Shown here piece after piece: positions 720 through 42,401 of a stretch of 64,000 nt of DNA. Both the position numbers and the translations under genes were made by a program. Position 1 is the first letter of the stretch. Each line of letters starts with the position of its first letter. The notes beneath the pieces were generated by a model that searched no databases, was not told the origin of the DNA, and worked only from the letters and a program-made list of their open reading frames with translations. The DNA is taken from contig CAVRUZ010000009.1 of assembly GCA_963724495.1 (NCBI GenBank), forward strand, positions 1,673 to 65,672, in the 5' to 3' direction. This DNA is from an uncultured Actinomycetota bacterium. Lineage in GTDB: Bacteria > Actinomycetota > Actinomycetes > Propionibacteriales > DAIQRJ01.

Positions 720-754
720 ATGCAGTAGTGCGTGAGTGTGATGCACTAATGCAT
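720..754. promoter_or_regulatory. Inverted repeat ATGCAGTAGTGC-N11-GCACTAATGCAT just downstream of a TTGACA hexamer (711-716); candidate operator/promoter of the pra-like gene
   Basis: The two 12-nt arms differ by one mismatch. The site lies in a locally AT-richer intergenic region upstream of the RBS AGGAGG (767-772). Confidence 0.35.
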
Positions 755-779
755 GATTCCTACGACAGGAGGAGCAGAG

Positions 780-1175: not shown

Positions 1176-1224
1176 GTGGGGCGACTCGTGGGCGCGGCGA
1201 GCCGCCGAGGGATGCGTGGGCATC

Positions 1225-2643
1225 GTGAACCGGCTTGGTGGAGATCAGCGGAACGACGGTCCCCTGCGTCTGAACGTGGCGAAGGTCCGTGTTCCCTTGT
1301 CGGCGGTCGTGGCCGTTTGGGTAGCTCGGAAGGTCCTTGCCGGGCTGTGGTGGTTGGTTCGCCATCCCCTGGTCTGGCTGAGCTTTCTGCTCGTCGGGCT
1401 GGCCGTGTGGGTCATCTCGAGGGTGGGTCCGTGGCTGTGCCTGGCTGTCGTGCTCGCCATCGCCGTGGGTCTGGTGACGTGGTGGCGCCTCGCCGCGGGT
1501 TCGTTCACGCGCCTTGTGGTGTGGCGGTGGCGGGCGATCTGGCGCCGGGCGCTGGTGTATCGCTACGTCTGGCAGCCGGCGATGGTGACGGCGAACCTGG
1601 CTGTGTACGTCAACGGCAGCGAGTTCCTGCCGAAGATTGTGTCGGTCAGATCGACCGGCGCCGTGGATCAGGTCAGGGTGCGGATGTTGCCTGGACAGAC
1701 CTTGGAGGACTGGGCACAGGCTTCACCCCGATTGGCGCAGACCTTCTCGGCGAGTGAATGCCGCGTTCGTTCCGAGGCGCGGTCGCGCCGCGAGCTGGTG
1801 CTGTGGTTCCTGATCGTTGACCCGCTGACCGAAGACGTCCCCGTGCTTCCTCCAGGCGAGCACGTTGACTTCGCCGCACTGCCTGTTGGGCGAGGTGAGG
1901 ACGGTGTCGTCTATCGCCTTCGCCTGCTGGGTAGTCATCTGCTGGTGGTCGGAGCGACCGGTTCAGGCAAGGGCTCGGTGATCTGGTCGATCATCAACGC
2001 TCTTGCGCCGGCCCTTCGCGATGGCTTGGCCCAACTGTGGGCGTTGGATCCCAAGGGCGGCATGGAACTCGCACCCGGACGCGCCCTGTTCACACGCTTT
2101 GTCTACGGCGATCCGGACGAAGGCACCGACTACGAGATGGAGTTCGCCCAGGTCCTCGAAGACGCCGTGGCCGTGATGCGTCGCCGACAGGCAGCGCTAC
2201 GTGGTGTTGCCCGCCTGCACACGCCGACCGTGGACGAGCCGCTGATCGTGGTCATCGTGGACGAGCTGGCCTCGCTGACCGCCTACGTGCTGGACCGGGA
2301 TGCGAAGCGGCGGATCGCGGCAGCCCTGTCGCTGTTGCTGTCGCAGGGCAGGGCCGTCGGTGTCAGCGTGGTCGGCGCTGTCCAAGACCCACGCAAGGAA
2401 GTCGTCGCCCTGCGGGATCTGTTCCCCACCCGGATTGCGCTCCGGCTCTCCGAAGCCGAACAGGTGAGTCTCGTCCTGGGACCCGGAGCCAGAGACCGAG
2501 GCGCACGCTGCGACCGCATCCGCGAGTCGATGCCCGGTGTCGGCTACGTGGGAATCGACGGCGTCGCCGAACCCGTCCGCGTCCGGTTCTGCCACATCAC
2601 CGACGAACACATCGCCCACCTGGTTGGTAACCACAGTCGCTGA
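1225..2643 (+). CDS. FtsK/SpoIIIE-family DNA translocase (TraSA/TraB-like conjugal transfer protein)
   Basis: There are N-terminal TM helices, a Walker A motif (VVGATGSGKGS) and a Walker B motif (LIVVIVDELASL). The start was chosen at GTG 1225; the ORF is open from 1060. Confidence 0.85.
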   Translation: MNRLGGDQRNDGPLRLNVAKVRVPLSAVVAVWVARKVLAGLWWLVRHPLVWLSFLLVGLAVWVISRVGPWLCLAVVLAIAVGLVTWWRLAAGSFTRLVVWRWRAIWRRALVYRYVWQPAMVTANLAVYVNGSEFLPKIVSVRSTGAVDQVRVRMLPGQTLEDWAQASPRLAQTFSASECRVRSEARSRRELVLWFLIVDPLTEDVPVLPPGEHVDFAALPVGRGEDGVVYRLRLLGSHLLVVGATGSGKGSVIWSIINALAPALRDGLAQLWALDPKGGMELAPGRALFTRFVYGDPDEGTDYEMEFAQVLEDAVAVMRRRQAALRGVARLHTPTVDEPLIVVIVDELASLTAYVLDRDAKRRIAAALSLLLSQGRAVGVSVVGAVQDPRKEVVALRDLFPTRIALRLSEAEQVSLVLGPGARDRGARCDRIRESMPGVGYVGIDGVAEPVRVRFCHITDEHIAHLVGNHSR

Positions 2644-2722
2644 GTCGCCGGCGATCAGCGGACAGGCCGGACATACAGCTTGTCCGCGTTGGTGAGGGAG
2701 CAGCTCGATCGAGTGATGCGGC

Positions 2723-4380
2723 ATGACACTGCGGGCTGCCCGACCCGTGGCGGTGACCGACGAGGCCGTCCGTGAGATCGCGATCGACCACGGCGTCTGT
2801 GTACGGCCGGTCCTGCGTCAGGTCACCGATCTGGAGACCGGCGAGATACACAAGCTGGTCATCCCCTGCGGAGCCACGCGCGACTACCTGTGCCCGCCCT
2901 GCGCGACGAAGGCACAACGGCTCCGGATGCAGCAATGCGCCGAAGGCTGGCACCTAGACACCGAAGTCCTCTCGGATCGACACAGGCGAGGATGACTGGC
3001 GACGCTGGTGCTGGCGAACCAGGAGGATGACGACGACGAACCATCTGAACGACGAACGCCGGGTGCGGTCGACCAGGCGCCGATCCGACATGGCCGACCT
3101 GCCACGAGTATCGATGGAGCACCGGTCGATCGGCCGCACCTTCACCGCGCCGCGACGGGACCGTGTATCGGCCCTCGATGTTCGTCACCGTGACCTTGCC
3201 GTCCTACGGCCGCGTGACAACACCAAGCAAGGGAGTGGCAGTCCCCGGTGCTGGCGCACCCCTCGACCCGGACACCTACAACTATCGGCGCGCGGCCTTG
3301 GACGCGCTGCACTTCCCCAAGCTGTTCGACCGGTGGATTCAAAACCTGCGGCGATGTGCCGGCTACCAGGTGCAGTACTTCTCGGCCATCGAGGAACAAC
3401 GCCGCCTCGCCCCGCACGCTCACGTGGCCCTGCGTGGCGCCATCCCCCGGCAGATCCTGCGCCAGGTCACCAAGGCCACCTATTTCAGTCTGTGGTGGCC
3501 GCCGCACGACCGGCCGGTCTACGTGCACCGCACACCGCTGTGGGATGACGAGACCGGCTCCTACCGCGACCCCGACACCGACTCGCCGCTGCAGACCTGG
3601 GACCAGGCCGTCGCCGAGCTCGACCACCCCGAAGCAGTGCCGGCGCACGTGATGCGGTTCGGCTCGCAGGTCGACATCAAGGGCGTGATCGCACCATCGG
3701 AAGATGCCAACCGCACCATCCGCTACCTGACGAAGTACCTCACCAAAGCCGTCGCGATGACACACGCCGATCCGGCGAACCCTGACCCGACCTATCTGGC
3801 GCACATCGACCGCCTGCATCGAGAAGTCCTCTACCTCCCGTGTTCGGAGGAGTGCGCGAACTGGCTCCGATTCGGCATCCAACCCAAGGACGCCGGCCCA
3901 GGGCTCATCCCCGGAAGGTGCACAGCCAAGGCACACGACGTGGAGAACCTCGGCCTCGGCGGTCGCCGCGTCCAGGTATCGCGCAACTGGTCCGGCAAGA
4001 ACCTCAGCCAACATCGCGCCGACCGAGCCGAAGTCGTACGACAAGTCCTCGCCGCATCCGGCATCGAAGCCCCCGAAGCCGACCGCTGGGCCGCAGACAA
4101 GACCACCGTCGACGGACGACAACGCTTCGTGTGGGAAGAGCTGTCCACCGACAACGCCGACTACATCGACGTCGTCATCGCCTGCGTCCTGGAGCAACAA
4201 CGCTGGCGCGAGCAATACCGAACGGCGAAGCAGGCATGGGAAACGACACGGGCCGGCCCGATGTCGACTGTGGATACCCGCTCAGCAACGCCGGCGGTGA
4301 GGGTGGGTGAGCCGACGACAGCTCGGCCTCCCCCGCAACCAGCTGACCTTTCGGGTGTCCGGGTCGGTTGTCCAGGGTGA
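2723..4380 (+). pseudogene. RepSA-type replication initiator, disrupted by a stop or frameshift near 2960-3050 and a frameshift near 3150
   Basis: Three frames carry consecutive parts of one protein. The first has CGATRDYLCPPCATKAQRLRMQQCAEGWHL, the second RRVRSTRRRSDMADLPR...IGRTFTAP, and the third VYRPSMFVTVTLPSYGRV continuing to 4380. Confidence 0.75.
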
Positions 4381-4477
4381 AATCCGGAGGACGCGAAGCG
4401 CCCTTGACAGCCGGTTCGGGGACCCCACCATCCACCGCGGGGGAGGCCGAGCCCCCAACCACGAAGGGATCACGGTC

Positions 4478-4696
4478 ATGGAAAGGATCGTTGTTGAGCG
4501 GGCATTGTATGACGTGTCGGAGGCGATGGCGTTGCTCAATTTGAGTCGTGCCCAGGTGTACAGGCTGATTCGTGCGCACCGCTTGCTCACGGTGACGCAG
4601 GGTCGGCGGCGGTTGGTGCCGGCCGCGTCGATCGCGAAATATGTTGCGCTCTTGGAGAGGGAAGCCAACGGGCGCGATGGCGGCCGCGCCGCGTAG
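4478..4696 (+). CDS. xis: Excisionase / helix-turn-helix DNA-binding protein
   Basis: ATG 4478 has an upstream GAAGGGA. The gene lies directly upstream of int, and the motif SEAMALLNLSRAQVYRLIR is typical of excisionase-family HTH proteins. Confidence 0.75.
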   Translation: MERIVVERALYDVSEAMALLNLSRAQVYRLIRAHRLLTVTQGRRRLVPAASIAKYVALLEREANGRDGGRAA

Positions 4697-4723
4697 TTGC
4701 TCGGCGAGGTTGGAGGTGCGGCG

Positions 4724-5865
4724 GTGAGCGTGCAGCGATTGACCTTGGCATCGGGAGAGGTGCGATACCGGGCTCGCGTGAAGTCCCACGGTAGGGGCGT
4801 CGCGTCGCGAGTGTTCACGCGTCGCGCTGATGCCCTTGCGTGGGAGTCCGAACAGGTGCGTCGCCTTCGCCTGGGTGAGTGGATCGATCCTCGGCGCGGG
4901 GCCGTGCCACTGTCGGTCGTCGCGGCGTCGTGGCTCGAGACGCGTGGGTCGGTGAAACGTCGGACGCGCGAGACGGATGCTGCGGTTTGGCGTCGCTACA
5001 TCGAGCCGCGGTTCGGGGCCTGGCCAGTGGCGTCGATTACCGGAGCGGAGGTTGCGAGTTGGCTGGGCGGCATCGTCGCGTCTGGCTCGGCTCCGGCGTC
5101 TGCTCGTCGTGCGCTGGCGACACTTCGGCTGATCCTGGCGCACGCTGTCGAGGACCAGCGGGTGACGCGAAACGTTGCTGTGGCGGTGCGAGCTCCCCGA
5201 GGTGGAGCCCGCCGTGAGGGTCGCGCTCTCACGACGGCGGAGGTCCGGGCGCTACAAAGTGCTGTGCCGCGGAGTCCTGGCCGACGTGGTGTTGGTTCTC
5301 GCGTTCACCGGGCTGCGGTGGGGCGAGCTGGCAGGTTTGCGGGTCGAAGACCAGGTGACGGTTCCGGGCCGTGGCCTGCGGGTGCAGCGTGCGCTGTTGG
5401 CCAGTAGCGAGGGCGGCAGCCTGTATGTCGACTCGGTGAAGTCAGGTCGTTCGCGCACGGTTCCGCTGCTGCCGGACGTGGCACTGATCGTGGATCGGTG
5501 GGCTACGGACCGGGAGCCAGGCGACTGGCTGTTCCATGCGCCGGGCGGTGGTCCCCTACGAGAAACGAATTGGAAGCGCTCGGTGCGTTGGGCTGACGCG
5601 ACTGCGGCGATCGGGCTTCCCACGTTGCGGGTGCACGACTTGCGGCACACGGCGGCGTCGATCTGGCTGGGGGCTGGTGCCGACCCAAAGGTGGTCCAGC
5701 GGGTGCTGGGGCATGCGTCAGCGGCCATGACGATGGACCTCGTACGGCCACATGATTGACGACAACTTGTGGACTGCCGCGAAGAGGCTTGGGGACAGCA
5801 CGGGGACAGGATCGGGTGTTGTGTCCGAGTTGCACCGTCGTGGTTCAGACGGTGCAGGGCCCTGA
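4724..5865 (+). pseudogene. int: Tyrosine recombinase/integrase with two frameshifts (about 5240-5275 and about 5740)
   Basis: The N-terminal SAM-like domain is in one frame. The catalytic domain (LAFTGLRWGELAGL, HDLRHTAAS, LGHASAAMTMDL) is in a second frame. The tail YGHMIDDNLWTAAKRLG is in a third frame and ends at TGA 5863-5865. Confidence 0.85.
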
Positions 5866-5880
5866 CCTGCGGCGTTTGCG

Positions 5881-5956
5881 TGGAGCCGCCTGTCGGAATC
5901 GAACCGACGACCTTCTCATTACGAGTGAGATGCTCTACCGACTGAGCTAAGGCGGC
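5881..5956 (-). tRNA. tRNA-Thr (anticodon CGU) with encoded CCA
   Basis: The reverse complement folds as a cloverleaf: acceptor GCCGCCT/AGGCGGC, D arm GCTC/GAGC, anticodon stem TCTCA/TGAGA with loop CTCGTAA, and T arm GTCGG-TTCGATT-CCGAC. Confidence 0.9.
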
Positions 5957-6051
5957 GGGCGCGGGCGAGCCCGGACCGACCGCAGAGTCTAGCGGGGCTA
6001 CCCGGTGGCTCCTGACACGTTCCGGGCCGCGGCCAACCAACCGCCGAACGG

Positions 6052-18491: not shown

Positions 18492-19271
18492 TCAGAGCGA
18501 CGACGCGGGCGGGCGGGTGTCGCCGGTCCCCTGCCTGGGCGGGGTCTCGGTGTGCGGCTCCGCCTCCGGCAGGTCGCCGAAGCCGGGCACCGGATTGTCC
18601 TGCTCGGCGGCGTGCAGTTGCGGTGTCGGGGTGCCGCTTGCGGCTGGTACCTGGTCCGGCGGGTACTCCCGTACGGGCTGGGATCCATATGCGTCGGTGT
18701 CGAAGGAGACCTGCGGCATGTCCCGGGCCTGCTCGTCGTGGATGTCGAAGTACTCGGCCGGTTGGTGGTGGAAGGCGCCACCGATCACCGACGAAGGGAA
18801 CGTACCTAGCCGGGTGTTGTAGGCCCGGACGTTGGCGTTGTAGAACCGCCGGCCGGCGGCGATGCGGTCCTCGGTGTCGGCGAGGGTCTGCTGCAGCTGC
18901 AGGAAGTTCTGGTTCGACTGCAGCTGTGGGTAGGCCTCCACCTGCACCATCAACTGATGCAGCTGACCGGAGATCGCCTCCTCGGTCTGGGCCCGCTCGG
19001 CACTCGGCCCGGACGGACCGCTCACCGCCTGGGTACGGAGGCGGGACAGCTCCGTGAGCACCTGCCGCTCCTGCGAGGCGTAGCCCTTGACCGTTTCGAC
19101 CAGCTGCGGGATCAGGTCGTAGCGGCGGCGCAGTTCCACGTCGATCTGCCGCCAGGACTCCTCGATGACGTTGCGCTGGCTGACGAAGCGGTTGAACATC
19201 GTGATCACGCTGATCCCGAGGATCAGGACGAGCGCCAGCACGATCACCATGAACACGACGAAGGCAGTCAT
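18492..19271 (-). CDS. LemA family membrane protein with a Pro-rich C-terminal extension
   Basis: There is an N-terminal TM helix followed by the LemA core NRFVSQRNVIEESWRQIDVELRRRYDLIP. The RBS GGGAGGG lies before ATG 19271. Confidence 0.8.
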   Translation of the reverse strand: MTAFVVFMVIVLALVLILGISVITMFNRFVSQRNVIEESWRQIDVELRRRYDLIPQLVETVKGYASQERQVLTELSRLRTQAVSGPSGPSAERAQTEEAISGQLHQLMVQVEAYPQLQSNQNFLQLQQTLADTEDRIAAGRRFYNANVRAYNTRLGTFPSSVIGGAFHHQPAEYFDIHDEQARDMPQVSFDTDAYGSQPVREYPPDQVPAASGTPTPQLHAAEQDNPVPGFGDLPEAEPHTETPPRQGTGDTRPPASSL

Positions 19272-19346
19272 TCGCCCTCCCATTCAGTCCGGTCGGTGGG
19301 CGTCAGGTCGGAGCCACTCTAGGTGGGATGGCTCGCACCACCTGCG

Positions 19347-19428
19347 ACGCGCTACATGCAGCAGCAGCCGGCATACCGGGACAGGTGGCTACGAAAGGGA
19401 CGCGTGGAGCGCCCGTTTGCATGTCTTG
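19347..19428 (-). repeat. Diverged copy (F) of the CATGCA/CGGACATGTCCG intergenic repeat family
   Basis: The reverse complement reads ACATGCAAACGG...CCTGTCCCGGTATGCC...GGCTGCTGCTGCATGTAGCGCG, and its modules align to copies A and B. Confidence 0.4.
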
Positions 19429-19452
19429 TGGCAACGACGTGGCAGGCGACCG

Positions 19453-20163
19453 TCAGCTGCCGTAGTCCTTGAGCACCCAGGCGGGGATCAGGGCGGCGAC
19501 TGCGGCGAGGAAGTCCCATCTCGCGGTGATGTCCTCGGGCTGCGGGCGCTGGGACATCGCGTTGTACAGGATGCGGCCGTTGATCCGGGTGACGCCGGTC
19601 TGGCCGGCCAGCATCAGCTCCATCATCCGCGTGGGCATCAGAGCGGAGCCGTAGCGCTCGTCAGCCGCCTTGTACCGGAACCGGCGGTTGAAGTCGTCAC
19701 TCTCGAGCTGGACGTCGTCGAAGCCAAAGGCGTCAGCCACCTTGCCGCCGAAGATGCCCTCGTCCTCGATCGTCATCGACGGCAGTGCCGTGGGTAGCCA
19801 GAGCGCGCAGATCTGCCAGCGGTAAGTCGTCGTCGAGCTGGACTTCCCGCTGCTGGTGGTCTCTTTGTAGATGTAGGTGAAGCCGAGAACCGGAGCCCCG
19901 TTGAGCGTGCCACTCAGGACGTGTGTCGCGCTGCGGCTGTGGCCCCTCCCGAACGGGCTGTCGTTGCCGAACTGCTTGTACAGCTCGTCGTCGACCTTGG
20001 GTTGGTACGTCAGCCCATGGTTGGCCGCGAACGCTGTGTAGAGCGCCTGCCGCTTGCGCTCCTGCCTCGCCGAGAGGACGACTCCTGCGACCACCGCCGC
20101 GATCCCGAGCGTGAGGAAGATGACGAAGGCGTTGTCGACCAATCCGAACATCGCGCTGTCCAT
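19453..20163 (-). CDS. DUF3137-like membrane protein (the usual LemA partner)
   Basis: There is an N-terminal TM helix, the gene is adjacent to lemA, and the RBS GGAGGA lies before ATG 20163. Confidence 0.6.
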   Translation of the reverse strand: MDSAMFGLVDNAFVIFLTLGIAAVVAGVVLSARQERKRQALYTAFAANHGLTYQPKVDDELYKQFGNDSPFGRGHSRSATHVLSGTLNGAPVLGFTYIYKETTSSGKSSSTTTYRWQICALWLPTALPSMTIEDEGIFGGKVADAFGFDDVQLESDDFNRRFRYKAADERYGSALMPTRMMELMLAGQTGVTRINGRILYNAMSQRPQPEDITARWDFLAAVAALIPAWVLKDYGS

Positions 20164-20222
20164 TGATCCTCCGCTGGTCGGGCCGTCCCGAGCGGGCCAA
20201 CGATTGCTGGCACGATGTCGCC

Positions 20223-21305
20223 ATGTCCTCCGATGTTCCCCCATCGCGCGTCGAGGCGGCCGAACCCGGCCCTACCCAGATGTCGGTGGAGGTCGCCGAG
20301 CAACCCGAGGCAGTGGCCCGCACGCTGGCCCACCTCCGCCCGAGAAGGGCCGACCTCGCCCGGTTGGCGGAGGGTCGGCGCCGGGTGCTGCTGGTGGCGC
20401 GCGGGTCGTCGGACAACGCCGCTGTCTACGGCCGTTATCTGCTGGAGACGCATGCCGGCTGGAGTGCAGCGCTCGCCGCTCCCAGCGTGGCGACGCTCTA
20501 CCAGGCCGAGCTGGACCTGAGCGACGCCATCGTGGTGTCGGTGTCGCAGTCGGGCGCTACCGAGGAGATCGTCGAGGCCCAGGCATGGGCGACCCGGCAC
20601 GGCGCCGCCACCGTCGCGGTCACCAATGACGGCGACAGCCCCTTGGCCTCCACCGCGAATGTCGCTCTGGTCACGCAGGCAGGCGTGGAGCGGGCCGTCC
20701 CCGCCACGAAGACCTACACGACCCAGCTCACCGCGATGGCCGTGCTCGCCTCTGCGCTGGCCAGTGACACGGAAGTCCTCGACGAGCCGCTCGACCGGGT
20801 GCCGGCCGAGATCGCGGGCCTCATCGAACACCGGGCGGGCATCGACGAGGCGGTCGACCGGCTCGCCCAGGCCGCCGAGGTGCTGGTCTCCGGCCGCGGC
20901 CTGGTGTTCGGCACCGCGCTCGAGATCGCCCTCAAGCTGGAGGAGACGTGCCTGCGGCCGGTGCGGGGGCTCTCGTACGCCGACCTGCGCCATGGACCGA
21001 TGGCCGTGGTCGACGCCGAGCTCGTGGCGGTGCTGGTGGCGGCTGCCGACGGGCCGATCCTGCCGGGCATGCACGACCTGGCCGACGATGTCGCCGCTCG
21101 CGGCTCGGTGACCATCGGCATCGGGGGCGACACGACGTTCGCGGCGAAGTGTGGAGTGGCTGTGGCCGGACCAGACCTCCCCGAGACCGTCGCTCCCCTG
21201 GCCCTCGTGGTTCCCGGCCAGTTGATCGTCGAACAACTGGCGCGCCGGCTCGGGCTCGACCCCGATGCCCCGCGCGGCCTGAAGAAGATCACCCAGACCG
21301 ACTGA
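20223..21305 (+). CDS. SIS-domain sugar-phosphate isomerase/aminotransferase-like protein (GlmS isomerase-domain family)
   Basis: Two SIS repeats are present (ARGSSDNAA, VSQSGATEE, RGLVFGTALEIALKLEE). An alternative start is ATG 20280. Confidence 0.75.
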   Translation: MSSDVPPSRVEAAEPGPTQMSVEVAEQPEAVARTLAHLRPRRADLARLAEGRRRVLLVARGSSDNAAVYGRYLLETHAGWSAALAAPSVATLYQAELDLSDAIVVSVSQSGATEEIVEAQAWATRHGAATVAVTNDGDSPLASTANVALVTQAGVERAVPATKTYTTQLTAMAVLASALASDTEVLDEPLDRVPAEIAGLIEHRAGIDEAVDRLAQAAEVLVSGRGLVFGTALEIALKLEETCLRPVRGLSYADLRHGPMAVVDAELVAVLVAAADGPILPGMHDLADDVAARGSVTIGIGGDTTFAAKCGVAVAGPDLPETVAPLALVVPGQLIVEQLARRLGLDPDAPRGLKKITQTD

Positions 21306-24545: not shown

Positions 24546-25082
24546 TCAGGCCGCGGCGAACCAGGCTCTGGTCGGCGCCCGCCACAGGAACACGACCCCC
24601 AGGGCACCGGCGAGCGAGGACACCGCCTGGACGGCGAGCGAGCCGGTCGACGAAGCGGCCAGCGCGTGGCGGTCGAGCGCTGCTACCAGGCCGACCAGGA
24701 ACAACACGGCGTTGACCACGCCGAGCAGGCTCGCGAGCCAGCGAGCCATCTGACTCCGCCGGCGGACATAGATGCCCAGCAGCAACCAGATGAACGCGGC
24801 TATCAACGAGGCACCCACAGCCAGCTGCACCTGACTGCCGACGACTGCGTCCACCCGGTTCAGATCGATCCTCAGCTCGCCTGCGTTGATCCGGTCGAGC
24901 AGCGACTGCTTGATCACGTCCACCTGGGTGTAGGTGAGCAGGCCGCCCAGGACCGAGGCAACCGCCCCAACGACGGCGCACCAGAACACCCACATCACCT
25001 CGCGCGGCTGCGGGACATCCGGCTGCGGTGGCTTCGGGGGAGGACGGCGCCGACTGCGCGCGCCACCTCGCTGCTGCGCCAT
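24546..25082 (-). CDS. Hypothetical membrane protein
   Basis: The N-terminus is Arg/Pro-rich and is followed by about four TM helices. GC3 is high. Confidence 0.5.
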   Translation of the reverse strand: MAQQRGGARSRRRPPPKPPQPDVPQPREVMWVFWCAVVGAVASVLGGLLTYTQVDVIKQSLLDRINAGELRIDLNRVDAVVGSQVQLAVGASLIAAFIWLLLGIYVRRRSQMARWLASLLGVVNAVLFLVGLVAALDRHALAASSTGSLAVQAVSSLAGALGVVFLWRAPTRAWFAAA

Positions 25083-25175
25083 GCCGGTCCACCTCCGCTC
25101 GTCGTCGAGGACGCTCGACCCGTCGCGTCAGGATAGGGACCCGCGGACCCATCGGCTTCGGCCTCGGCGTGGCGC

Positions 25176-25300
25176 CACGCATGCAGACCGGCACGGCGCG
25201 CGGCCGACATGAGCGGACATGTCCGGATCGGTCTGGGTCGGCTGCATGTATCGCGCACGCTGGTCGGCCGGCGACGGCGGCCGACCCCCGAGCGACGTCA
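25176..25300 (+). repeat. Copy A of the structured intergenic repeat (outer stem CATGCAG/CTGCATG, 28-nt core GACATGAGCGGACATGTCCGGATCGGTC, then a 9-bp GC hairpin)
   Basis: The 28-nt core is identical to copy B. The palindrome CGGACATGTCCG is at 25214-25225, and the hairpin GGTCGGCCG-N7-CGGCCGACC is at 25262-25286. Confidence 0.6.
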
Positions 25301-25363
25301 GGGTCTAGCGTGCGCGGACACATCCGAGAGCTTTCGCGCCGGTCGAGAGGACGAGTTCGTTAC

Positions 25364-25856
25364 ATGAGCAGCAACCAGGACGAGGTCGGCTTCCTGCAGC
25401 AGGCCATCCGGCTTGCCGTCGACAACGCGGCAGCGGGGCGGTTGCCCTTCGGGGCTGTGGTCGTGCGGGCCGGGGAGGTGCTCGCGACCGGCGTCAACAC
25501 CGAGCAGCGTGACTCGGATCCGACCGCGCACGCCGAGGTCGCCGCGATCCGGAACGCCTGTGCCGCCGTTGGCGCGACCCGCCTGCCCGGAGCGACGGTG
25601 TACTCCAGTTGCGAGCCGTGCGCGGTGTGCCAGACCGTGTCCGCCGCGGCCGAGGTGACAGGGATCGTGTACGCCGCGCCGCGGGAGTTGGTACCCGACC
25701 TCGGGAGTGCCGGTTCGCGCTGAGATCGGCGCGCTGCTCGGACGCATGCAGGACGACATGCGCAGCCTCGCGCCGGATCGCGTCACGCACGTGCCGGTGG
25801 ACGGCGCGGCCGAACCGTTCGAGCGGTTCCTCGACTACCGCTCCGGTACGCCGTGA
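25364..25856 (+). pseudogene. CMP/dCMP-type zinc deaminase (guanine/tRNA-adenosine deaminase-like) with one frameshift near 25700
   Basis: The motifs HAEVAAI and SCEPCAVC are present. The C-terminal part PVRAEIGALLGRMQDDMRSLAPDRV... continues in another high-GC3 frame to TGA 25854-25856. Confidence 0.7.
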
Positions 25857-25930
25857 AGCTGGGGCTCAACATCCGCAACTTCGGCCCGAGCGCCGGGCGT
25901 GACTGACCCGTACCTCTCGTAGGCGGCGCG

Positions 25931-26060
25931 ACACATGCAAACCGCGACGCCGGACGGTCGACATGAGCGGACATGTCCGGATCGGTCCCTTCCGGCTGCA
26001 TGTTTCGCGCCGCGGGCAAGAAGCGGTCGGACGCCGACAGCCGACCCATCAGCGAGGTCG
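25931..26060 (+). repeat. Copy B of the structured intergenic repeat
   Basis: The modules are ACACATGCAAACCG, the identical 28-nt core at 25960-25987, CGGCTGCATGT at 25993-26003, and the hairpin GGTCGG-N10-CCGACC at 26025-26046. Confidence 0.6.
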
Positions 26061-26076
26061 GCCACAATGGGCGACC

Positions 26077-27252
26077 GTGACCAGTTCTCGCGCCGATCGG
26101 TTGTCCGGGCTGGGCACCACCGTCTTCGCCGAGATGTCGGCGATGGCGCTGGCGACCGAGTCGGTGAACCTGGGCCAGGGCTTTCCCGACACCGACGGTC
26201 CCGACAGCGTGCTGCAGGCCGCCAGCGACGCGATGTTCTCCGGCCGGTACAACCAGTACCCGCCCGGCATCGGGGTGCCCGAGCTTCGCCATGCGGTGAG
26301 CGAGCACCAGCAGCGCTTCTACGACCTGCGCTACGACGCCGACACCGAGGTGCTGGTCACCGCCGGTGCCACCGAGGCCATCGCGGCCGCCCTGCTGTCC
26401 CTGGTGAACCCGGGCGACGAAGTCGTTGCGCTGGAGCCCTACTACGACTCCTACGCGGCCTGCATCGCGATGGCCGGCGGCGTGCGCCGTCCGGTGACCC
26501 TTCGTGCACCGGACTTCCGACTCGACGTCGATGCCCTGTACGCCGCGGTGACACCGCGCACCAAGCTGCTGCTGATCAACAGTCCGCACAATCCCACCGG
26601 CACCGTCTTGTCAGCAGACGAATACGCCGCGATCGCACGGGTGGCGCAGGAGCACGACCTGCTGGTCATCACCGACGAGGTCTACGAGCACCTGGTCTAC
26701 GACGGCGCGCACCACATCCCGCTCGCGACCCTGCCCGGTATGCGGGACCGGACGATCTCGATCTCGAGCTCGGGCAAGACGTTTTCCCTGACGGGCTGGA
26801 AGATCGGCTGGGTCTGCTCCTCGCCCGAGCTGGTCCGCACGGTCATGATGGCCAAGCAGTTCCTCACATACGTCTCTGGTGGTCCGTTCCAGCCGGCCAT
26901 CGCGGGGGCGCTAGGCCTCGGCGACGACTACTACCGGCAGCTCACGGCTGGCATGCAGGACAAGCGCGACCGGCTGTGCGACGGCCTCGAGGCGATCGGC
27001 TTCGAGGTGTTCCGCCCGCAGGGGACCTACTTCGCCACCACCGACGTCCGCTCGCTCGGGTTCACCGATGGCGCGTCCTTCTGTGCCGAACTCCCGCACG
27101 CATGCCGGGTGGTGGCCATCCCGCACGAGGTGTTCTACGACCACACAGAAGTGGGCCGTCCGCTGGTGCGCTGGGCCTTCTGCAAGCGACACGAGACCTT
27201 GGACGAAGCCCTCGCCCGGCTCGCGTCCGGTCTTCCGCGGATGCGTCGTTGA
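26077..27252 (+). CDS. Class I/II pyridoxal-phosphate aminotransferase
   Basis: The motif NSPHNPTG and the PLP-lysine motif SSSGKTFSLTGWKIGW are present. The start is GTG 26077. Confidence 0.85.
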   Translation: MTSSRADRLSGLGTTVFAEMSAMALATESVNLGQGFPDTDGPDSVLQAASDAMFSGRYNQYPPGIGVPELRHAVSEHQQRFYDLRYDADTEVLVTAGATEAIAAALLSLVNPGDEVVALEPYYDSYAACIAMAGGVRRPVTLRAPDFRLDVDALYAAVTPRTKLLLINSPHNPTGTVLSADEYAAIARVAQEHDLLVITDEVYEHLVYDGAHHIPLATLPGMRDRTISISSSGKTFSLTGWKIGWVCSSPELVRTVMMAKQFLTYVSGGPFQPAIAGALGLGDDYYRQLTAGMQDKRDRLCDGLEAIGFEVFRPQGTYFATTDVRSLGFTDGASFCAELPHACRVVAIPHEVFYDHTEVGRPLVRWAFCKRHETLDEALARLASGLPRMRR

Positions 27253-27806: not shown

Positions 27807-29307
27807 TCAGCGCCGCGACGGCATCAGTGGCGGCTTCGAGTAGCGGAGGTGCCGTCGCTCTCTGCAGGCGGGATCGACGTCGATCGGTGGGCGTACCTGC
27901 GGCAGGCCGTCGCGCGCGATCTCGATCTCCCACTGGTCTCCGGGCGGTACATGCGGATCCGGTTCGACCAGGCGATGGTGGTACGGACACAGCAGAACTC
28001 CGTTGGCGAGGCTCGTCTCCCCGCCGTCCCACCACGGTTGGACGTGGTGCGCATCGCAGGCTGCCGGCGGCGCATCACAGCCGGGGAAGGCACAACCGCG
28101 GTCGCGTGCGTTGAGTGCCTGCCGCAGCTCCCCGCCGAAGAAGCGGCTGGCTCTGCCCACCGACAGCGGAACTCCCTTGAGATCCAGAGCGATCAACCCG
28201 ATCAGGGCGTCACACGCCAGGCGTCGTGCCGTGTTCGCAGACACCGGTCGATCGTCGCTCAGCAGTCCGTGGCCCGGCTCGCCCACGAGAACCTCTAGCG
28301 GGACAAGCAGATTCACCCGAGGACGGTCTGCGCCACGACTCGGGGCGTCACCTGAATCGGCATAGCAGTGGACGATCTCCATCAGTGCATCGGCGCGCTT
28401 CTGCGTTGCCGACCTGTCGTCGCCTGCCTCGACACCCCCGGAACCGGGCCTTGGCCGCGCCACGAGCGAGTCGACCAGGAGCCGAAGGTGTCCACCCTCC
28501 ACCGGTGGGAGCACACCCCTCAGCCCGACTCCACCCGTGGCGGGATCGTCGTAGAACCAGAGCGATCGGCCTGCATCTGCCTCCGCGTCGAGTCTGCGAA
28601 CGGCAGCTTCGGCATCTGCCTCAGCTACCTCGGGGGCCAGGAGCTCGACGACTAGGTTGGCGGCCATCCTCAGGTCGCGCGGATTGTGGCTACGCGCGAG
28701 TTCGACGAGGTCACGCTCTGCCCGGTGCACACTCTCCACCGGAAGTTCCTCAGGGAGCTTGCGCATGGTCGCCACGACCGCTTCGGCCTGCTCCATCGAC
28801 ACGGCTCCGGCGGCAAGCGCCGCACCAACAACGGTGAACTTCTCCCGGAGCAGCCGCCCGAGCCGGACGAGTTCGCGTGCTCGCTCTACCGACACCACGT
28901 TCAGGTGATGCGCCAGGAAGGTCGACGTCTGGAGTTGATGTCTGCCGATCGTGGCGCGGCGAGCTTCAGCCTCGGCTATCAGTCGCAGAGTCGACGCCTG
29001 CGCCATGGCCTGAACGGCCTGCCCAGCCTCGAGAAGTCCGAGGAGGTCGTGATCACCAAGACCGTCGAGATCGGCGTGGACGAGCGACTCGAGTGCGGAG
29101 CGTGCATCGCTGACCGCAACCCTCGCCGATCGCAATGCAGCTGCGAGCCTCGTCGTCGAACAGATCGAAGGCCTCGGACCCGAGGACCCACGTGTCCTCG
29201 AGCTCCGCCCAGAGCGCGGCATCGTCAGGTACGGACTCCGAGAGTCTCGATCCCTTCGACGAGTCGAACATGTGTTCGATTGTACTGAGTTTCCTCTGCC
29301 TGCACAA
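27807..29307 (-). pseudogene. DUF222 / HNH endonuclease (REP13E12-like family) with one frameshift near 29150
   Basis: The C-terminal HNH motif is CAFPGCDAPPAACDAHHVQPW...LLCPYHH. The N-terminus MFDSSKGSRL...DLFDDEA is in another frame. Confidence 0.75.
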
Positions 29308-29393
29308 GGGTGTCTCGGTCGATTACCCCTGCGAAGTCTGACGCTTGCAACCCCCGCGCTCGCCCTCGATCCACGATGCGCAAGGGTTGGCTG

Positions 29394-30062
29394 ATGAGCA
29401 CAGAGACGCTGACTGGAAAGCAGGTTGCCGAGGCCGGCCTCGACGGCTGGGCCTTCCTCCTGTCCTACGGGGCGGGTTCGCTCCAGACCCGCATCCGCAC
29501 CAAGGACTTCGCCACCGGACTCCAGATCGTCAACGCGATCGGGGCGGCGGCGGAAGAGATGGACCACCATCCCGACATCGACCTCCGCTATTCCCGCGTA
29601 GACGTCCGGATGACCAGCCACGACTCAGGTGGTGTGACGAAACGCGACCTGAAGCTCGCCCGCCGCGTCACCGAGATCGCCGAAGCCGCAGGCACGAAGG
29701 TGGAGTGCGACACCATCTCCCTGCTCGAACTGGCCTTGGACACCCCGCACTACGACAAGCTCGGCCCGTTCTGGGCGGCGGTGATGGGCGGGGAGCACGT
29801 GACGGGCGACGGCTTCGCCGACGTGGGCGACCCGAACCAGGCGCTGCCGCTGATCTGGTTCCAGCGCTCCGGCAGCGAGGAGCCCAGGCAGCGCTGGCAC
29901 GCCGACGTCTGGGTCGATCCGGCCCAGGTGCAGCCGCGAATCGACGCGGCACTCGCCGCCGGCGGGACTCTTGTCAGCGACGCGGAGGCGCCGTCATTCT
30001 GGGTGCTGTCTGATCAGGACGGCAACAAGGTCTGCCTGTGCACCTGGCAGTCGCGCGACTGA
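29394..30062 (+). CDS. Fusion of pterin-4a-carbinolamine dehydratase and a glyoxalase/VOC-like domain
   Basis: The N-terminal half has the PCD motif EEMDHHPDIDL. The C-terminal half is VOC-like (LIWFQRS...WHADVWV...FWVLSDQDGNKVCLC). Confidence 0.65.
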   Translation: MSTETLTGKQVAEAGLDGWAFLLSYGAGSLQTRIRTKDFATGLQIVNAIGAAAEEMDHHPDIDLRYSRVDVRMTSHDSGGVTKRDLKLARRVTEIAEAAGTKVECDTISLLELALDTPHYDKLGPFWAAVMGGEHVTGDGFADVGDPNQALPLIWFQRSGSEEPRQRWHADVWVDPAQVQPRIDAALAAGGTLVSDAEAPSFWVLSDQDGNKVCLCTWQSRD

Positions 30063-34899: not shown

Positions 34900-37509
34900 T
34901 CAGGAGGCGACCGTCGCCGGCTCCTTCGCGTGCACCACCAGCTTGTTCGTGGCCGCGTCGAGGTCGACCACCACCGTGTCGCCGTCCCGCACGGCACCGC
35001 CGAGGAGCTGCCGGGCCAGCTCGTCACCGATCGCCGACTGCACCAGACGCCGCAGCGGGCGGGCACCGTACAGCGGGTCGTATCCGGTCACGGCCAGCCA
35101 GCGCTCGGCCTCCTCGGTGACCTCCAGAGCGATCCGCCGATCGGCCAGCCGCGCGGCCAGCGCCGCCACCTGCAGGTCGACAATGCGCGTCAGGTCGTCC
35201 TGCGACAGCGCGTCGAACACCACGATCTCGTCCAGCCGGTTGAGGAACTCGGGCTTGAACGACTGGCGCACGACCGACATCACCGCATCGTGGGCTGCCT
35301 CCGGTGCCATCGTCGGGTCGGACAGGTAGTTCGAGCCGAGGTTCGACGTCATCACCAGGATCGCGTTGCGGAAGTCGACCGTGCGGCCGTGGCCGTCGGT
35401 CAGCCGGCCGTCATCGAACACCTGCAAGAGGATGTTGAAGACCTCGGGATGCGCCTTCTCCACCTCGTCGAGCAGCACGACGGAGTAGGGACGCCGCCGC
35501 ACCGCCTCGGTGAGCTGGCCGCCCTCGTCGTAGCCGACATACCCGGGCGGCGCACCGACGAGTCGGGAGACCGAGTGCTTCTCCGAGTACTCGCTCATGT
35601 CGATGCGGATCATCGCCCGCTCGTCGTCGAACAGGAAGTCCGCGAGCGACTTGGCCAGTTCGGTCTTGCCGACGCCAGTGGGTCCCAGGAACAGGAACGA
35701 CCCGGTCGGCCGGTTGGGATCGGAGATGCCGGCACGGGCCCGACGGACTGCGTCGGACACGGCGCCCACAGCATTGGTCTGCCCGATGAGGCGTCGCCCG
35801 AGCTCCTCCTCCATCCGCAGCAGCTTGCCGGTCTCCCCCTCCATCAGCCGGCCCAACGGGATGCCCGTCCAGGACGAGATCACCTCGGCGACCTCCTCCG
35901 GCCCGACCTCGTCGCGCACCATCGTCTGGGCGGTGTCCTTCTGCTCCGCCTCCGACGTGGTCTCGATCTCCTTCTCCAGTTGCGGAATCCGTCCGTAGAG
36001 GAGCTCGCTGGCGGCGGCCAGGTCGCCCTCGCGCTGGGCCTTCTCTGCCTGCATCCGCAGCTCGTCGAGCTGTTCCTTGAGCTCGCCGACTCGGTTGAGC
36101 GATCCCTTCTCGTTCGCCCAGCGAGCTTCGAGCCCGAGCAATTCCTCTTCCTGGTCAGCGAGTTCCGCGCGCAGTCGCTCGAGTCGCTCCTGCGATGCCG
36201 CGTCGTCCTCCTTCTCCAGGGCGAGTTCCTCCATCTTCAGCCGGTCGACGGAACGTCGAAGCTGGTCGATCTCGACCGGCGAACTGTCGATCTCCATCCG
36301 CAGCCGCGATGCCGACTCGTCGACAAGGTCGATGGCCTTGTCGGGCAGCTTGCGCCCGGTGATGTAGCGGTTGGACAGCGTCGCGGCGGCGACCAAAGCG
36401 GCGTCGGCGATCGCGACCTTGTGATGCGCCTCGTAGCGCTCCTTCAGGCCACGCAGGATCGCGATCGAGTCCTCCACGCCCGGCTCGGATACCAGCACCT
36501 GCTGGAACCTGCGCTCCAACGCCGGGTCGGACTCGACCCGCTTGCGGTACTCGTCCAGGGTGGTCGCGCCGATCATGCGCAGCTCACCGCGCGCGAGCAT
36601 CGGCTTGAGCATGTTGCCGGCGTCCATCGCGCCGTCGCCGCCCGCACCGGCGCCCACCACGGTGTGGAGTTCGTCGATGAACGTGATGATGCGGCCCTCG
36701 GACGACTTGATCTCCTCGAGGACGGCCTTCAAGCGTTCCTCGAACTCGCCCCGGTACTTCGCCCCGGCGATCATGGCTGCCAGGTCGAGCGACACCAGCT
36801 TGCGGTCCTTCAGCGACTCCGGCACGTCTCCGGCAACGATGCGCTGGGCCAGTCCCTCGACCACAGCGGTCTTGCCCACGCCCGGCTCGCCGATCAACAC
36901 GGGGTTGTTCTTCGTACGTCGGCTCAGGACCTGCACGACCCGCCGGATCTCGGAGTCCCGGCCGATCACGGGATCGAGCTTGCCCTCGCGGGCGGATGCG
37001 GTGAGGTCGACCGAGTATTTCGCCAAGGCCTGCAATGTGTTCTCGGGGTCGGCAGTGGTCACCTTCTGGCCGCCGCGAACTCGATCGATGGCCGGCGTCA
37101 GCACCTCGGCGGTCACTCCCCGCTCGGCGAGCAGCGCCTTCGCCGGGCCGTCGATCGTGACCAGCGCGAGGAGCAGGTGCTCGATCGACACGAAGTCGTC
37201 ACCCATCCGGGTGGCCGCGTCATCTGCCTGGGCCAGCACCTGGGTCATCTGCCGCGTCGCCTGAGGCTGCCCGACGCTCGACCCGGAGGCCCGCGGCAGC
37301 TTGTCGATCTCGGCCCCGACCACGCGGTCGAGGTCTGCACGGCGAACACCGACCGCCTCGAGCAGCGGCTCGACGATCGTGGTGTCGTCGACCAGCAGCG
37401 CGGCAAGCAGGTGAAGTGGTTCGAGTTGCGGATTACCGCGGGTCGACGCGAGGCGCAGTGCCAATGCCACGGCCTCGTTCGACTTCGTCGTGAGGTTGCG
37501 TCCAGCCAT
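34900..37509 (-). CDS. clpB: ATP-dependent chaperone ClpB
   Basis: Two AAA+ modules are present (GEPGVGKTA and GPTGVGKTE) with a coiled-coil middle domain. The length is 869 aa. Confidence 0.95.
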
Positions 37510-37598
37510 GGGTCGTTCTCCTGATGATCTTTGCTGGTTGAGATTTCGCTTCGTGAGTGTCGAGTTGGGCCCGATCCGTGGATCTCCCGCCCGCAGCG

Positions 37599-38066
37599 CT
37601 ACCGGTCGGTTCCCGCCTCCAGCTGGCGTGGCCGCGGATACGGATCGGGTCGCCGTCGGCGGACCCGCATGTCGACCACGTCGCCGGCACTCCCGGCGAG
37701 GAACACTCGGGCCGCAGCTGGATCGGGTGTCGGCAGGCCGTGCTCCTGCAGCTCGTGCTGGAGCAGCATCACCTGTGCCCGCAGGCCGGCGATCTCTGCC
37801 TGCATGGCCAGCACCCGCCGGATGCCGGGCAGTCCGACGCCTTCCTTGGACAGTCGCTGCACGAGCCGCAACGCGGCGATGTCGCGGGCGGAGTAGCGGC
37901 GCCCGCGGCCACTGCTTCGTTGCGGAACCACCAGGCCGGCCCGGTCGTACTGCCGCAGCGTCTGCGGATGCATCCCCGCGAGCTCGGCGGCAACGCTGAT
38001 CACGTAAACAGGACGATCGGCTGGCAACCCGCCGGCACGCGCGTCGGCCGACGATGGTGAGGTCAT
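37599..38066 (-). CDS. hspR: Heat-shock repressor HspR (MerR family)
   Basis: The MerR HTH is [26 protein letters not shown], and the gene is the last in the dnaK operon. Confidence 0.85.
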
Positions 38067-38163
38067 GTCAGCCTCCTTCGGCCTGCGGTGGAACGGTCTT
38101 GCGGTGTTGCGGATTCTTCGGCGTTACTGCTTCTACTACAGGTGGTGCGGTGAAAGCCTTGGG

Positions 38164-39336
38164 TCAGGCCGAGGTCGCGTCCCGCAGCAGCTTGGCCCGA
38201 ACGTCGACCCCATCGGTGGACTTGGCGTACTTGGCCAGTGCCTGCTTCTGCTCCTCGTCGAGCTCGTCGGGGACGATGACCTTGAGCGTTACCAGCATGT
38301 CGCCGTAGCTGCCATCGGATCGCCGGGCGCCCTTGCCACGCACGCGAAGCACGCGCCCGTTGGGAGTTCCCGGTGGGACCCGGACGCTCACCGGCGGACC
38401 GGTGAGCGTCGGCACCTTGATGTCGGAACCCAGGGCAGCTTCAGCGAAGGTGACCGGAACCTCGATGGTGAGGTTGGCTCCCTTCTTGCCGAACACCCGG
38501 TGCGTTCCGACGTGGACGCGCACGTACAGGTCGCCGCTCGCTCCGCCGTTCTCGCCCGGGCCGCCCTTGCCCTTGAGCCGGATGCGCTGGCCGTCGTCCA
38601 CGCCGGCGGGGATCCGGGCCTGGACCGTGCGAGTTGATTGGGCCCGTCCCGAACCATGGCAGGTCACGCACGGGTCTTCGACCACCAGGCCGCGACCGAG
38701 ACATTCCTTGCAGGGCTCGGTGATCGCGAAGCCACCGGACCTGCCGACGGGCTCCATCCCGGTGCCTTCACAGTTCGGGCAGATCTTCGGCAGCGAGCCG
38801 GTCTTCGCCCCGGTGCCGTGGCACGTGGGGCAGGCGGCGTCGCTGGAGAGGTTCAGCCGGATCGTGGTGCCGGCGACCGCGTCGGAGAAGTCGAGCGTGA
38901 CGTCGGTCTCGACGTCGGCACCTCGCCGAGCAGCCGTCGTGGTTCGAACCCGGGTGTTCCCGGTGCCGCCCTGACCGAACAGTCCGCCGAAGATGTCGCC
39001 GAGCCCACCGTTGCCCCCTTGACCGAACAGGTCACCAAGGTTGCCGCTGCCGGTCCCAGCCGTACCAGGACGGCGGAACGGGCCACCCCGGCTGAAGCTT
39101 CCGAACAGGGAGCGAGCTTCGTCGTACTCCTTGCGCTTCTCGCGCGACGAGAGAACGGAGTAAGCCTCCGAGATCTCCTTGAACTTCTGCTCGGCCTTGG
39201 CGTCGCCGGGGTGGTTGTCGGGGTGGTGGGCACGCGCGAGCTTGCGGTAGGACTTCTTGATGTCCTCGGCCGATGCGTCTTTGGACACACCGAGCGTGGC
39301 GTAGAAGTCCTTCTCCAGCCAGTCCTTGGTGCTCAC
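38164..39336 (-). CDS. dnaJ: Molecular chaperone DnaJ
   Basis: The J domain has the HPD motif ([14 protein letters not shown]), followed by a G-rich linker and four CxxCxGxG zinc motifs. Confidence 0.95.
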
Positions 39337-39406
39337 GATGCCCCCTCCCGTTCCGTGTGGGTCATTCTGGCGTTCGGTCGTGCTCGTTCACAACTGAAAC
39401 TGCGCA

Positions 39407-39444
39407 GGTGATGAGGATCAGGCACTCGCCTGATCCTCACCACC
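39407..39444. other. 17-bp intercistronic stem-loop between grpE and dnaJ
   Basis: The structure is GGTGATGAGGATCAGGC, loop ACTC, GCCTGATCCTCACCACC, with one mismatch. Confidence 0.45.
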
Positions 39445-40128
39445 TGCCTTGGCGTCGTTGCCGGCAGCCTGACCGTCGACGGCCGCTTCGTCCGCGGCTG
39501 TCTCGTCGATGCACCGGCTCCGCGCCACCGTGCTCGGGCGCGGTGACCGCCACCCTTGCCGGGCGGAGGATCCGGTCGCCCAGGCGGTAGCCGGGCTGCA
39601 GGATGGCCGTGGCCGTCGGCTCCTCGACGTCGCCCGACTGCGCGAACATCAGGGCCTCGTGGTGGGTGGGGTCGAAAGGCTCGCCCACCTCGCCGAAGCT
39701 GGTGACGCCCATCCGCTCCAGTGCCCGGGTCAGCGAGTCCGCCACCGCCTTGAAGCCGCCGGTGAGCTCACCGTGCTGCTCTGCCCTGGCGATGTCGTCG
39801 AGCACCGGAAGCAACTCGGTGGCTGCCTTGACCGTGCCGGCCTGTGCGGATGTCGCCCGGTCGCGATCGACCCGCCTGCGGTAGTTCACGTACTCCGCTT
39901 GCAGGCGTTGCAGGTCGGCCGTGCGTTCGTCGGCCAGCTTCTGCAGCCGATCGATCTCCTCCGACGCAAGCGCGTCGGCTGAGGGCTCGTCTGCTGCCGG
40001 CGCGGCCGGCCCGGCGGATTTCGCCGCCGGGCCGACTCCCGGACGTGCCTGACCGGTCACCGGGTCGATACGCCGGCGGTCACGGACCACGGGGCCGTCG
40101 AACTCTTCCTCGGTGTTGCCGGTCTCAC

Positions 40129-40132
<4 letters not shown>
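39437..40132 (-). CDS. grpE: Nucleotide exchange factor GrpE; the C-terminal tail is probably frameshifted near 39510, with the alternative stop at 39418
   Basis: The GrpE core is [16 protein letters not shown]...HEALM. The last 30 or so codons have low GC3 and are Arg-rich. The +1 frame instead gives an acidic, high-GC3 tail [30 protein letters not shown]. Confidence 0.85.
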
Positions 40133-42006
<1,874 letters not shown>

Positions 42007-42172: not shown

Positions 42173-42261
42173 GTGCAAGATTCCCGCAAGCCTGCGATGT
42201 GATCCAGGTCACTTCTTGCGGCTCGGCCGTCCTGAGTGCAGGCAAGCACCCTCGGGTCCGG

Positions 42262-42350
42262 CGCGCCTCAAACATGCAGTCGGATGCGACCAGTCCGGAC
42301 ATATCCGCTCTTGTGGGCGCTCAGGACGCCTCGATTGCATGTGTGAGGTC
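42262..42350 (-). repeat. Copy C of the structured intergenic repeat (reverse orientation)
   Basis: The reverse complement reads ACACATGCAATCGA...GAGCGGATATGTCCGGACTGGTC...CGACTGCATGTTT. Confidence 0.55.
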
Positions 42351-42401
42351 GGCGGCTGCACGTTTCAGGCTGCCGCGGCGGCCTCGTCCTAGCCTGGCCG
42401 C

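Follow-up and report, generated by a model that had tools for sequence, protein, structure and literature searches.

A putative lineage-specific family of intergenic palindromic repeats in an uncultured actinobacterium, with one pair of copies bracketing a deaminase gene fragment

Introduction

Why should two look-alike intergenic stretches, each carrying a perfect palindrome, stand on either side of one deaminase gene in an uncultured soil actinobacterium? The window studied here, meaning the whole 64,000-nt stretch of DNA that was analysed, raised this question when a sequence-only reading described the two stretches as copies of a structured element. That reading proposed a selected RNA or DNA structure or a protein-binding site, and it suspected a wider family. 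To our knowledge, interspersed palindromic repeats have been described in detail from Proteobacteria and from a few Firmicutes, but scarcely from high-GC Actinobacteria. Here we ask what the element is made of, where else it occurs, how the deaminase gene came to lie between two copies, and whether the element is best understood as RNA, as an operator, as a recombination site, or as a repeat. The best reading is that the two stretches and two further copies in the window belong to a previously undescribed, lineage-specific family of intergenic palindromic repeats.

Results and Discussion

Two copies of one element flank a deaminase gene

The two stretches, copies A and B, lie among genes for a phosphoribosyltransferase, a membrane protein, the deaminase and an aminotransferase, and copy A sits in a divergent intergenic region 5' of the deaminase gene. 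The features of this locus are as follows.

24546..25082, - strand: membrane-protein gene, diverging from copy A
25166..25263, + strand: copy A, with its core CATGCA...GCATGT at 25180-25249
25179..25186, + strand: left terminus of A, GCATGCAG (family consensus ACATGCAG)
25215..25228, + strand: internal box of A, GGACATGTCCGGAT, holding the palindrome CGGACATGTCCG
25242..25249, + strand: right terminus of A, CTGCATGT, the left terminus inverted
25257..25300, + strand: co-duplicated right flank, A side, including the GC-rich hairpin at 25262-25286
25301..25913, + strand: insert between the duplicates, 613 nt, absent from contigs L081 and L082 and from outgroup genera
25364-25856, + strand: deaminase gene, frameshifted in the window
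25853-25906, + strand: remnant of an LLM-type (luciferase-like) oxidoreductase gene, VKLGLNIRNFGPSAGRD*, the start of the gene only
25920..26017, + strand: copy B, with its core at 25934-26003, upstream of the aminotransferase gene
25933-25940: left terminus of B, counterpart of that of A
25969-25982: internal box of B, counterpart of that of A
25996-26003: right terminus of B, counterpart of that of A
26011-26062, + strand: co-duplicated right flank, B side, including the hairpin at 26025-26046
26077..27252, + strand: class I/II aminotransferase gene (like Rv0858c/DapC), downstream of B

Over 86 ungapped nucleotides, A (25171-25256) and B (25925-26010) are 83% identical, and a gapped alignment extends the likeness to ∼130 to 140 nt, GC-rich hairpins included. 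The 28-mer GACATGAGCGGACATGTCCGGATCGGTC occurs exactly twice in the window, at 25206-25233 and 25960-25987, both times on the + strand; it was matched in none of 100 dinucleotide shuffles of the window. Inside it lies the perfect 12-nt palindrome CGGACATGTCCG, at 25214-25225 in A and 25968-25979 in B. The long-range complementary pair CATGCAG/A...CTGCATG is present in both copies, with the GC-rich hairpins 3' of it. The sequence-only reading was right on all of these points: the two near-identical copies around the deaminase gene and their coordinates, the identical 28-nt core, its palindrome, the enclosing stem and the presence of a hairpin after each copy. It also took the hairpin for a module of the element, and this part does not stand, since the hairpin belongs to a right-flank segment that lies outside the family consensus and is absent after other copies. 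A and B alone have it in common because they are paralogues.

The pair belongs to a dispersed family

Searches bore out the expectation of more copies, two of them in the window and others retrieved by a sequence pattern from metagenome contigs. The copies in the window are the following.

42258..42355, - strand: copy C, with its core at 42272-42341, found by BLAST and nhmmer
19340..19437, - strand: copy D, diverged, with its core at 19354-19423

Copy C, also in a divergent intergenic region, has dnaK ∼250 nt downstream and an orthologue in contig L043. Copy D, presumably the one listed as F by the sequence-only reading, is flanked by the stop codon of the gene at 19453-20244 and by the start codon of lemA (gene at 18492-19283). 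It keeps the exact family spacing, CATGCA-N34-TGTCC-N18-TGCATGT, and has orthologues in contigs L091 (86% identity) and L090 (82%), with the box decaying in the latter. An iterated HMM search found no fifth copy in the 64-kb window. The octamer ACATGCAR occurs there 8 times against 2.2 expected, and 7 of the 8 occurrences are inside the four copies.

Some 14 further loci bring the family to ∼18 independent loci, so the suspicion of a dispersed family was well founded. Metagenome contigs of relatives at ∼89% identity supplied these loci, nearly all of them from JGI metagenome Ga0190275, so the copy number stands at four per 64 kb plus ∼14 loci drawn from one metagenome population through a restrictive pattern. 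This relaxed three-block pattern returned 49 stretches from the metagenome contigs, of which ∼20 are genuine copies; it fixes the three motif blocks and their spacing, and the invariance of those blocks among the copies so retrieved is partly ascertainment. Mean column identity in the family alignment is 68%, with almost no indels. Copies can also be clustered, as a head-to-head pair in L036 (2653-2870) and as tandem pairs in L039 (1115-1355) and L044 (1073-1321). In L044, the duplicated unit takes in the final codons of the upstream gene, which indicates that local tandem duplication around copies recurs.

Outside this lineage, we found no member of the family. The strict core pattern has zero matches in 185,579 reference genomes, and the relaxed three-block pattern has 28 in the same genomes, all singletons in unrelated taxa; we regard these as chance because none scores with the family HMM. 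Viral contigs gave only chance matches to the relaxed pattern, and BLAST of copy B against plasmids and phages gave no match. The earlier statement that the element resembles no named family is borne out by Rfam, for which a tRNA alone in the window reaches the gathering threshold and nothing credible appears over 24900-26300 even at E<=10. A full-text literature search with the box and end sequences matched only human p53 response elements, and exact look-ups of DnaK, of a 429-aa ORF that opens inside copy B and of the public cluster member P0131 gave no match.

Ends and box are constrained in place, and spacers vary

What defines the element? Our family alignment (A4) holds 24 copies in 98 nearly gap-free columns, and the element spans about 88 to 95 nt. 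Its termini are inverted, with ACATGCAG(y)CG at the left, CGGCTGCATGT at the right and a looser outward arm on each (GCGCGA left, TCGCGC right). CATG.A and GCATGT do not vary across A4, unlike the interior; the terminal inverted repeats ACATGCAG/CTGCATGT are invariant or nearly so and reach ∼18 nt at the consensus level. Between them lies an off-centre palindromic box, GACATGTCCGGAT (also written GAGCGGACATGTCCGGATC). This box is the sole local palindrome in A4, and the terminal consensus GCGCGAnACATGCAGyCG forms no stem-loop of its own. An RCATGY hexamer is found in each of the three conserved blocks, the centres being spaced at 38 and 27 bp, and the spacers are near-constant in length and free to vary in sequence.

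A view of this pattern without that ascertainment comes from orthologues fetched through neighbouring proteins only, a set that covers A (3 genomes), B (5 genomes) and D (3 genomes). In this set, 15 of 90 columns (17%) vary in the termini and box, compared with 61 of 123 (50%) in the spacers (Fisher p=6e-7). Such low variation of the ends and box in orthologues chosen independently of the motif indicates that the blocks are constrained in place, and the earlier observation that modules are kept and spacers are free is confirmed on the same data.

The left spacer is hypervariable (alignment columns 22-36; window positions 25187-25201 in A and 25941-25955 in B). About 40% of its positions differ between genomes that are 90 to 93% identical overall, whereas the 40 nt immediately outside the element are almost unchanged between those genomes. 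The changes in the left spacer are not compensated on the opposite arm.

In both A and B, a spurious ORF beginning MSGHVRIG... starts from the ATG of the conserved core (GACATGAGC; regions 25209-25367 and 25963-27252). The one in B is in frame with the aminotransferase and yields the 429-aa ORF, and P0131 is also 429 aa, which suggests that gene callers start the aminotransferase inside the repeat. A small ORF from the core ATG was considered and rejected, as the site reads CAAG in C and in copy A of L001.

The A/B pair arose around an inserted gene fragment

Orthologous loci were fetched by way of the aminotransferase. The named relatives closest to it, at ∼75% amino acid identity, are in Tenggerimyces, Actinopolymorpha and Kribbella, all Propionibacteriales, which places the uncultured host in that order. 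Both A and B are present in the syntenic contigs L001 and L080 (∼90 to 93% identity), and L053 and L043 (Ga0190275, ∼89% identity) carry A plus B and C. The deaminase and two copies are found together in the window, L001, L080 and L053. The orthologous locus in L081 and L082, ∼83% identical to the window, reads membrane-protein gene, single copy, then aminotransferase, with no deaminase, and the membrane-protein orthologue directly adjoins the single copy. That copy matches A in its left flank, and B in its body and right flank. In Tenggerimyces and Actinopolymorpha the gene neighbours are the same, but both the deaminase and the element are missing.

The single copy without a deaminase in L081 and L082 indicates that A and B are a ∼140-nt direct duplication bracketing the 613-nt insert. 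The duplicated segments, about 25161-25300 for A and about 25914-26062 for B, each comprise the element and ∼45 nt of right flank. Judged from these alignments, one resident copy became two around an inserted fragment. On this point we depart from the sequence-only reading, which held that the pair does not look like a recent plain duplication: A and B are a local duplication, as the single copy with A's left flank and B's right flank attests. The fragment may have inserted with duplication or recombination at a resident copy. By another route, a composite of element, deaminase and element would have inserted earlier and been reduced to one copy in the lineage of L081 and L082.

Three parts make up the insert: a leader, the deaminase gene, and ∼15 codons from the start of an oxidoreductase gene of the LLM type (VKLGLNIRNFGP...). 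This remnant shows that the fragment was cut from a deaminase-oxidoreductase operon elsewhere. The remnant overlaps the deaminase stop in a GTGA arrangement, which is conserved in L001, L080 and L053. In the window, the deaminase is frameshifted at 25700-25725, giving 119 aa and a stop with the remainder in the +1 frame; in L001, L080 and L053 it is an intact 163-aa ORF. The window version is either a pseudogene or an assembly error.

Copies lie between genes in either orientation

All copies are intergenic, outside high-GC3 reading frames, and those in the window fall between called ORFs. Several abut stop codons, and in L058m and L077 a copy fills the gap between convergent genes. A, C and the copies in L039 lie in divergent regions; others lie between codirectional genes in either orientation. 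All four window copies point toward a start codon, to which we give little weight because this is automatic in divergent regions; only B and D are informative.

Scans around A and B found no sigma-70-like promoter and no T-tract terminator, and terminator function was rejected on the latter result. A SigH/SigR-type promoter (GGAT-N18-GTT) fits B and C by eye. It was rejected for its -35 without AA, the random orientation of copies to genes and the copies between convergent genes. Likeness to HAIR, CIRCE and the DnaA box, also judged by eye, is poor.

Several other features of the window were recorded alongside. A heat-shock gene cluster occupies 34903-42006 on the - strand, encoding, by synteny with L001, ClpB, a MerR-family (HspR-like) regulator, DnaJ and then DnaK; the likely HspR operator region has copy C on its upstream side. 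Next to a tRNA gene (5884-5956, - strand), positions 750-5960 hold a pSAM2-like integrative and conjugative element, which encodes an FtsK/SpoIIIE protein (1033-2640) and an excisionase-like HTH_17 protein (4301-4693). Its RepSA replication initiator is split into ORFs 2717-2992 and 3049-4377, a possible frameshift, and its GC3 is below that of the rest of the window. A 1.55-kb insertion at 27818-29368 carries a DUF222 and HNH endonuclease gene (ORF 27807-29621, - strand); L001 and L081 lack it and have ∼25 nt at that site instead. A link between the repeat family and this insertion was rejected, the junctions being unrelated.

A probable DNA-level repeat rather than a structured RNA

It is tempting to see in each copy a structured RNA, either a cis-regulatory leader (riboswitch-like or a thermometer) or a multicopy small RNA, with the conserved hairpin as its functional unit. 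Each copy folds unaided into a long imperfect hairpin, in most cases end to end, and in one column pair (14-84) A-U is found in 16 copies and G-U in 8. That A, B, C and D all point at the start of a downstream gene would suit a leader, but this is automatic in divergent regions, and about half of the metagenome copies face the 3' end of a convergent gene or are antisense to both neighbours. The folding is also no property of one strand. The copies are more stable than dinucleotide shuffles to the same degree on both: the mean z score is -1.85 on one strand and -1.85 on the other, the mean energies are -43.8 and -43.2 kcal/mol, and G-U and A-C mismatches occur on both arms.

The sequence-only reading had proposed a test for covariation, and here every search for compensatory change came out negative. 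The RNAalifold consensus is an invariant 7-bp stem with zero compensatory pairs. In a hand-drawn 17-pair outer stem, 79.1% of cells are paired, versus 76.8% with shuffled partners, and 26 of 500 shuffles reach the native value, so covariation is not above the shuffle control. Chimeras that join arms from independent loci are as stable as native elements (-42.9 ± 7.3 versus -43.8), and chimeric arms within orthologue groups are no less stable than native ones. The palindrome thus belongs to the family consensus and does not reflect co-evolution of the arms. Together with the empty Rfam search and a 78%-identical relative whose aminotransferase has no such leader, the lack of covariation, the strand-equal hairpins and the placement in either orientation leave a riboswitch-like or leader RNA without support. 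We consider a structured RNA quite improbable, and the earlier suggestion of a selected RNA structure does not survive these comparisons.

The reading we think probable is that the copies are lineage-specific, ∼90-bp interspersed intergenic palindromic repeats, of the REP/REPIN/BIME/MITE kind, that matter at the DNA level as protein-recognition sites. The element would act as DNA, with the termini and the box, that is, the three RCATGY blocks, as putative recognition sites. Their recogniser may be a trans-acting transposase or recombinase responsible for past copying of the element, or a DNA-binding factor of the host. Recognition would keep the blocks at each locus as the spacers drift, and the family-level palindrome can form a hairpin from either strand when transcribed or single-stranded. 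The family would have arisen by copying, as the architecture and the similarity across spacers also suggest in preference to convergent origin.

The copies are old and vertically inherited. Among relatives at 82 to 93% identity, we saw no presence/absence polymorphism of whole copies, with A/B, C and D all kept; mobility is thus only inferred. The outgroup genera lack the element at the A/B site, but they are phylogenetically distant. Direct repeats of 3 to 9 nt were sought at all offsets around 19 copies as target-site duplications, and only GC-rich chance matches appeared. No transposase or RAYT gene was found among the ORFs scanned in the 64-kb window and the short contigs. Insertion into an ACATGT target with CATG duplication was rejected, as GCGCGAAACATGTTTCGCGC-like palindromes do not occur uninterrupted and ACATGT shows no enrichment. 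Constraint in place is contrary to the prediction for a purely selfish element.

Alternative explanations

Could the copies instead be independent operator sites of a transcription factor regulon, for instance a stress regulator of dnaK and metabolic genes, that were never copied from one another? The perfect 12-nt palindrome in the box and the constraint on box and ends would fit, as would the position of A and C in divergent promoter regions, C being upstream of dnaK. But operators that arose independently would not be expected to share a ∼90-nt architecture with fixed spacing and a mean identity of 68% that extends through the spacers, or to occur in tandem and head-to-head clusters, or to fill the stop-codon gaps between convergent genes in L058m and L077, where no promoter is expected. 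With no sigma-70-like promoter found around A or B, and a box unlike the HAIR and CIRCE heat-shock operators (consensus sequences compared by eye), we regard this explanation as unlikely. The opposite simplification, that the A/B pair is no more than a local duplication and has no wider family, draws on their being each other's closest match and on the 45 extra nt of right flank that they have in common. It is already refuted by the additional copies: C, D and ∼14 further loci have the same ends, box and spacing, and C and D stand at orthologous sites in relatives.

The insert itself invites a different view, in which the element is the recombination site of a gene-capture system, on the logic of integron attC sites or plasmid pdif modules, and the stretch from A through the deaminase to B is a captured cassette. 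Direct copies do bracket the deaminase fragment, relatives with one copy have no deaminase, the outgroups have neither, and the conserved inverted ends around a variable interior recall attC sites. Yet this is a single case. The duplication overruns the element by ∼45 nt on the right, so that the joints are off the element boundaries; the insert ends within the oxidoreductase gene, more like illegitimate capture than a tidy cassette; no integrase or recombinase is nearby; and the copies are scattered among housekeeping genes with no array. We doubt, then, that capture is what the element is for. A bolder combination would be a host-maintained, three-site (RCATGY) protein-binding module that also captures gene-sized fragments, with the deaminase as the first visible product of a new actinobacterial system; this we hold to be improbable, somewhat more so than capture by itself. 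Altogether, the interspersed DNA repeat remains the reading that we carry forward.

Comparison with known repeat systems

REPINs are doublets of REP sequences that form hairpins; they have two conserved inverted regions, the length of the spacer matters, and compensatory changes are reported to be common (Bertels & Rainey 2011, PMC3116915). Our family resembles them in its two conserved inverted regions with a variable interior of fixed length, its extragenic placement, a length of about 90 to 110 nt, a predicted hairpin in single-stranded DNA or RNA, the occurrence of clusters, and long-lived vertical inheritance. It differs in that compensatory changes across the hairpin were not detected, the conserved ends are not small palindromes themselves, and an extra, asymmetric conserved box lies within the spacer. 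REPINs number tens to hundreds per genome and flank a cognate RAYT (Y1 transposase) gene, whereas this lineage has no known RAYT. The host differs as well, being an actinobacterium, whereas REPINs are described mainly in Proteobacteria. Without compensatory changes and with nonpalindromic ends, the family does not pass as a REPIN.

The BIME-1/RIP (RIB) elements of Escherichia coli and the Correia elements of Neisseria have inverted terminal repeats around a conserved site for a host protein (IHF). They occur between genes in both orientations, frequently at the 3' ends of genes, and form part of the mRNAs of their neighbours; Correia elements make a TA target duplication. By analogy, inverted repeats flanking a conserved internal site, in intergenic DNA and in either orientation, would place our family close to these. 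The sequences, however, are not similar, the box here is no IHF site but a GC-rich palindrome centred on ACATGT, and no TA duplication was seen.

As in MITEs of DDE type, the copies are short, noncoding and dispersed between genes and have terminal inverted repeats of ∼8 to 18 nt. The differences are that the 19 copies searched show no target-site duplication, the family has no known parent insertion sequence, individual copies are constrained in place, and no insertion polymorphism was seen among relatives at 82 to 93% identity. The absence of target-site duplications argues against a classical MITE. Integron attC and pdif sites offer imperfect palindromes with conserved inverted ends and a variable middle, and there is one gene-sized insert bracketed by direct copies here. 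However, the R''/R' core sites of attC (RYYYAAC / GTTRRRY) are absent, the ends being ACATGCAG/CTGCATGT; there is neither an integrase nor an array, the copies lie between housekeeping genes, and the duplication extends past the element. In all, the family is best filed as a lineage-restricted interspersed palindromic repeat and not as an RNA class.

Implications

Three features make these repeats of interest: the constraint in place, the fast-changing left spacer and the gene-sized insertion between duplicated copies. The constraint suggests a role that serves the host or a dedicated protein. Knowledge of the repeat also improves the annotation of these metagenome-assembled genomes, and the deaminase insertion is a concrete case of such repeats shaping gene content.
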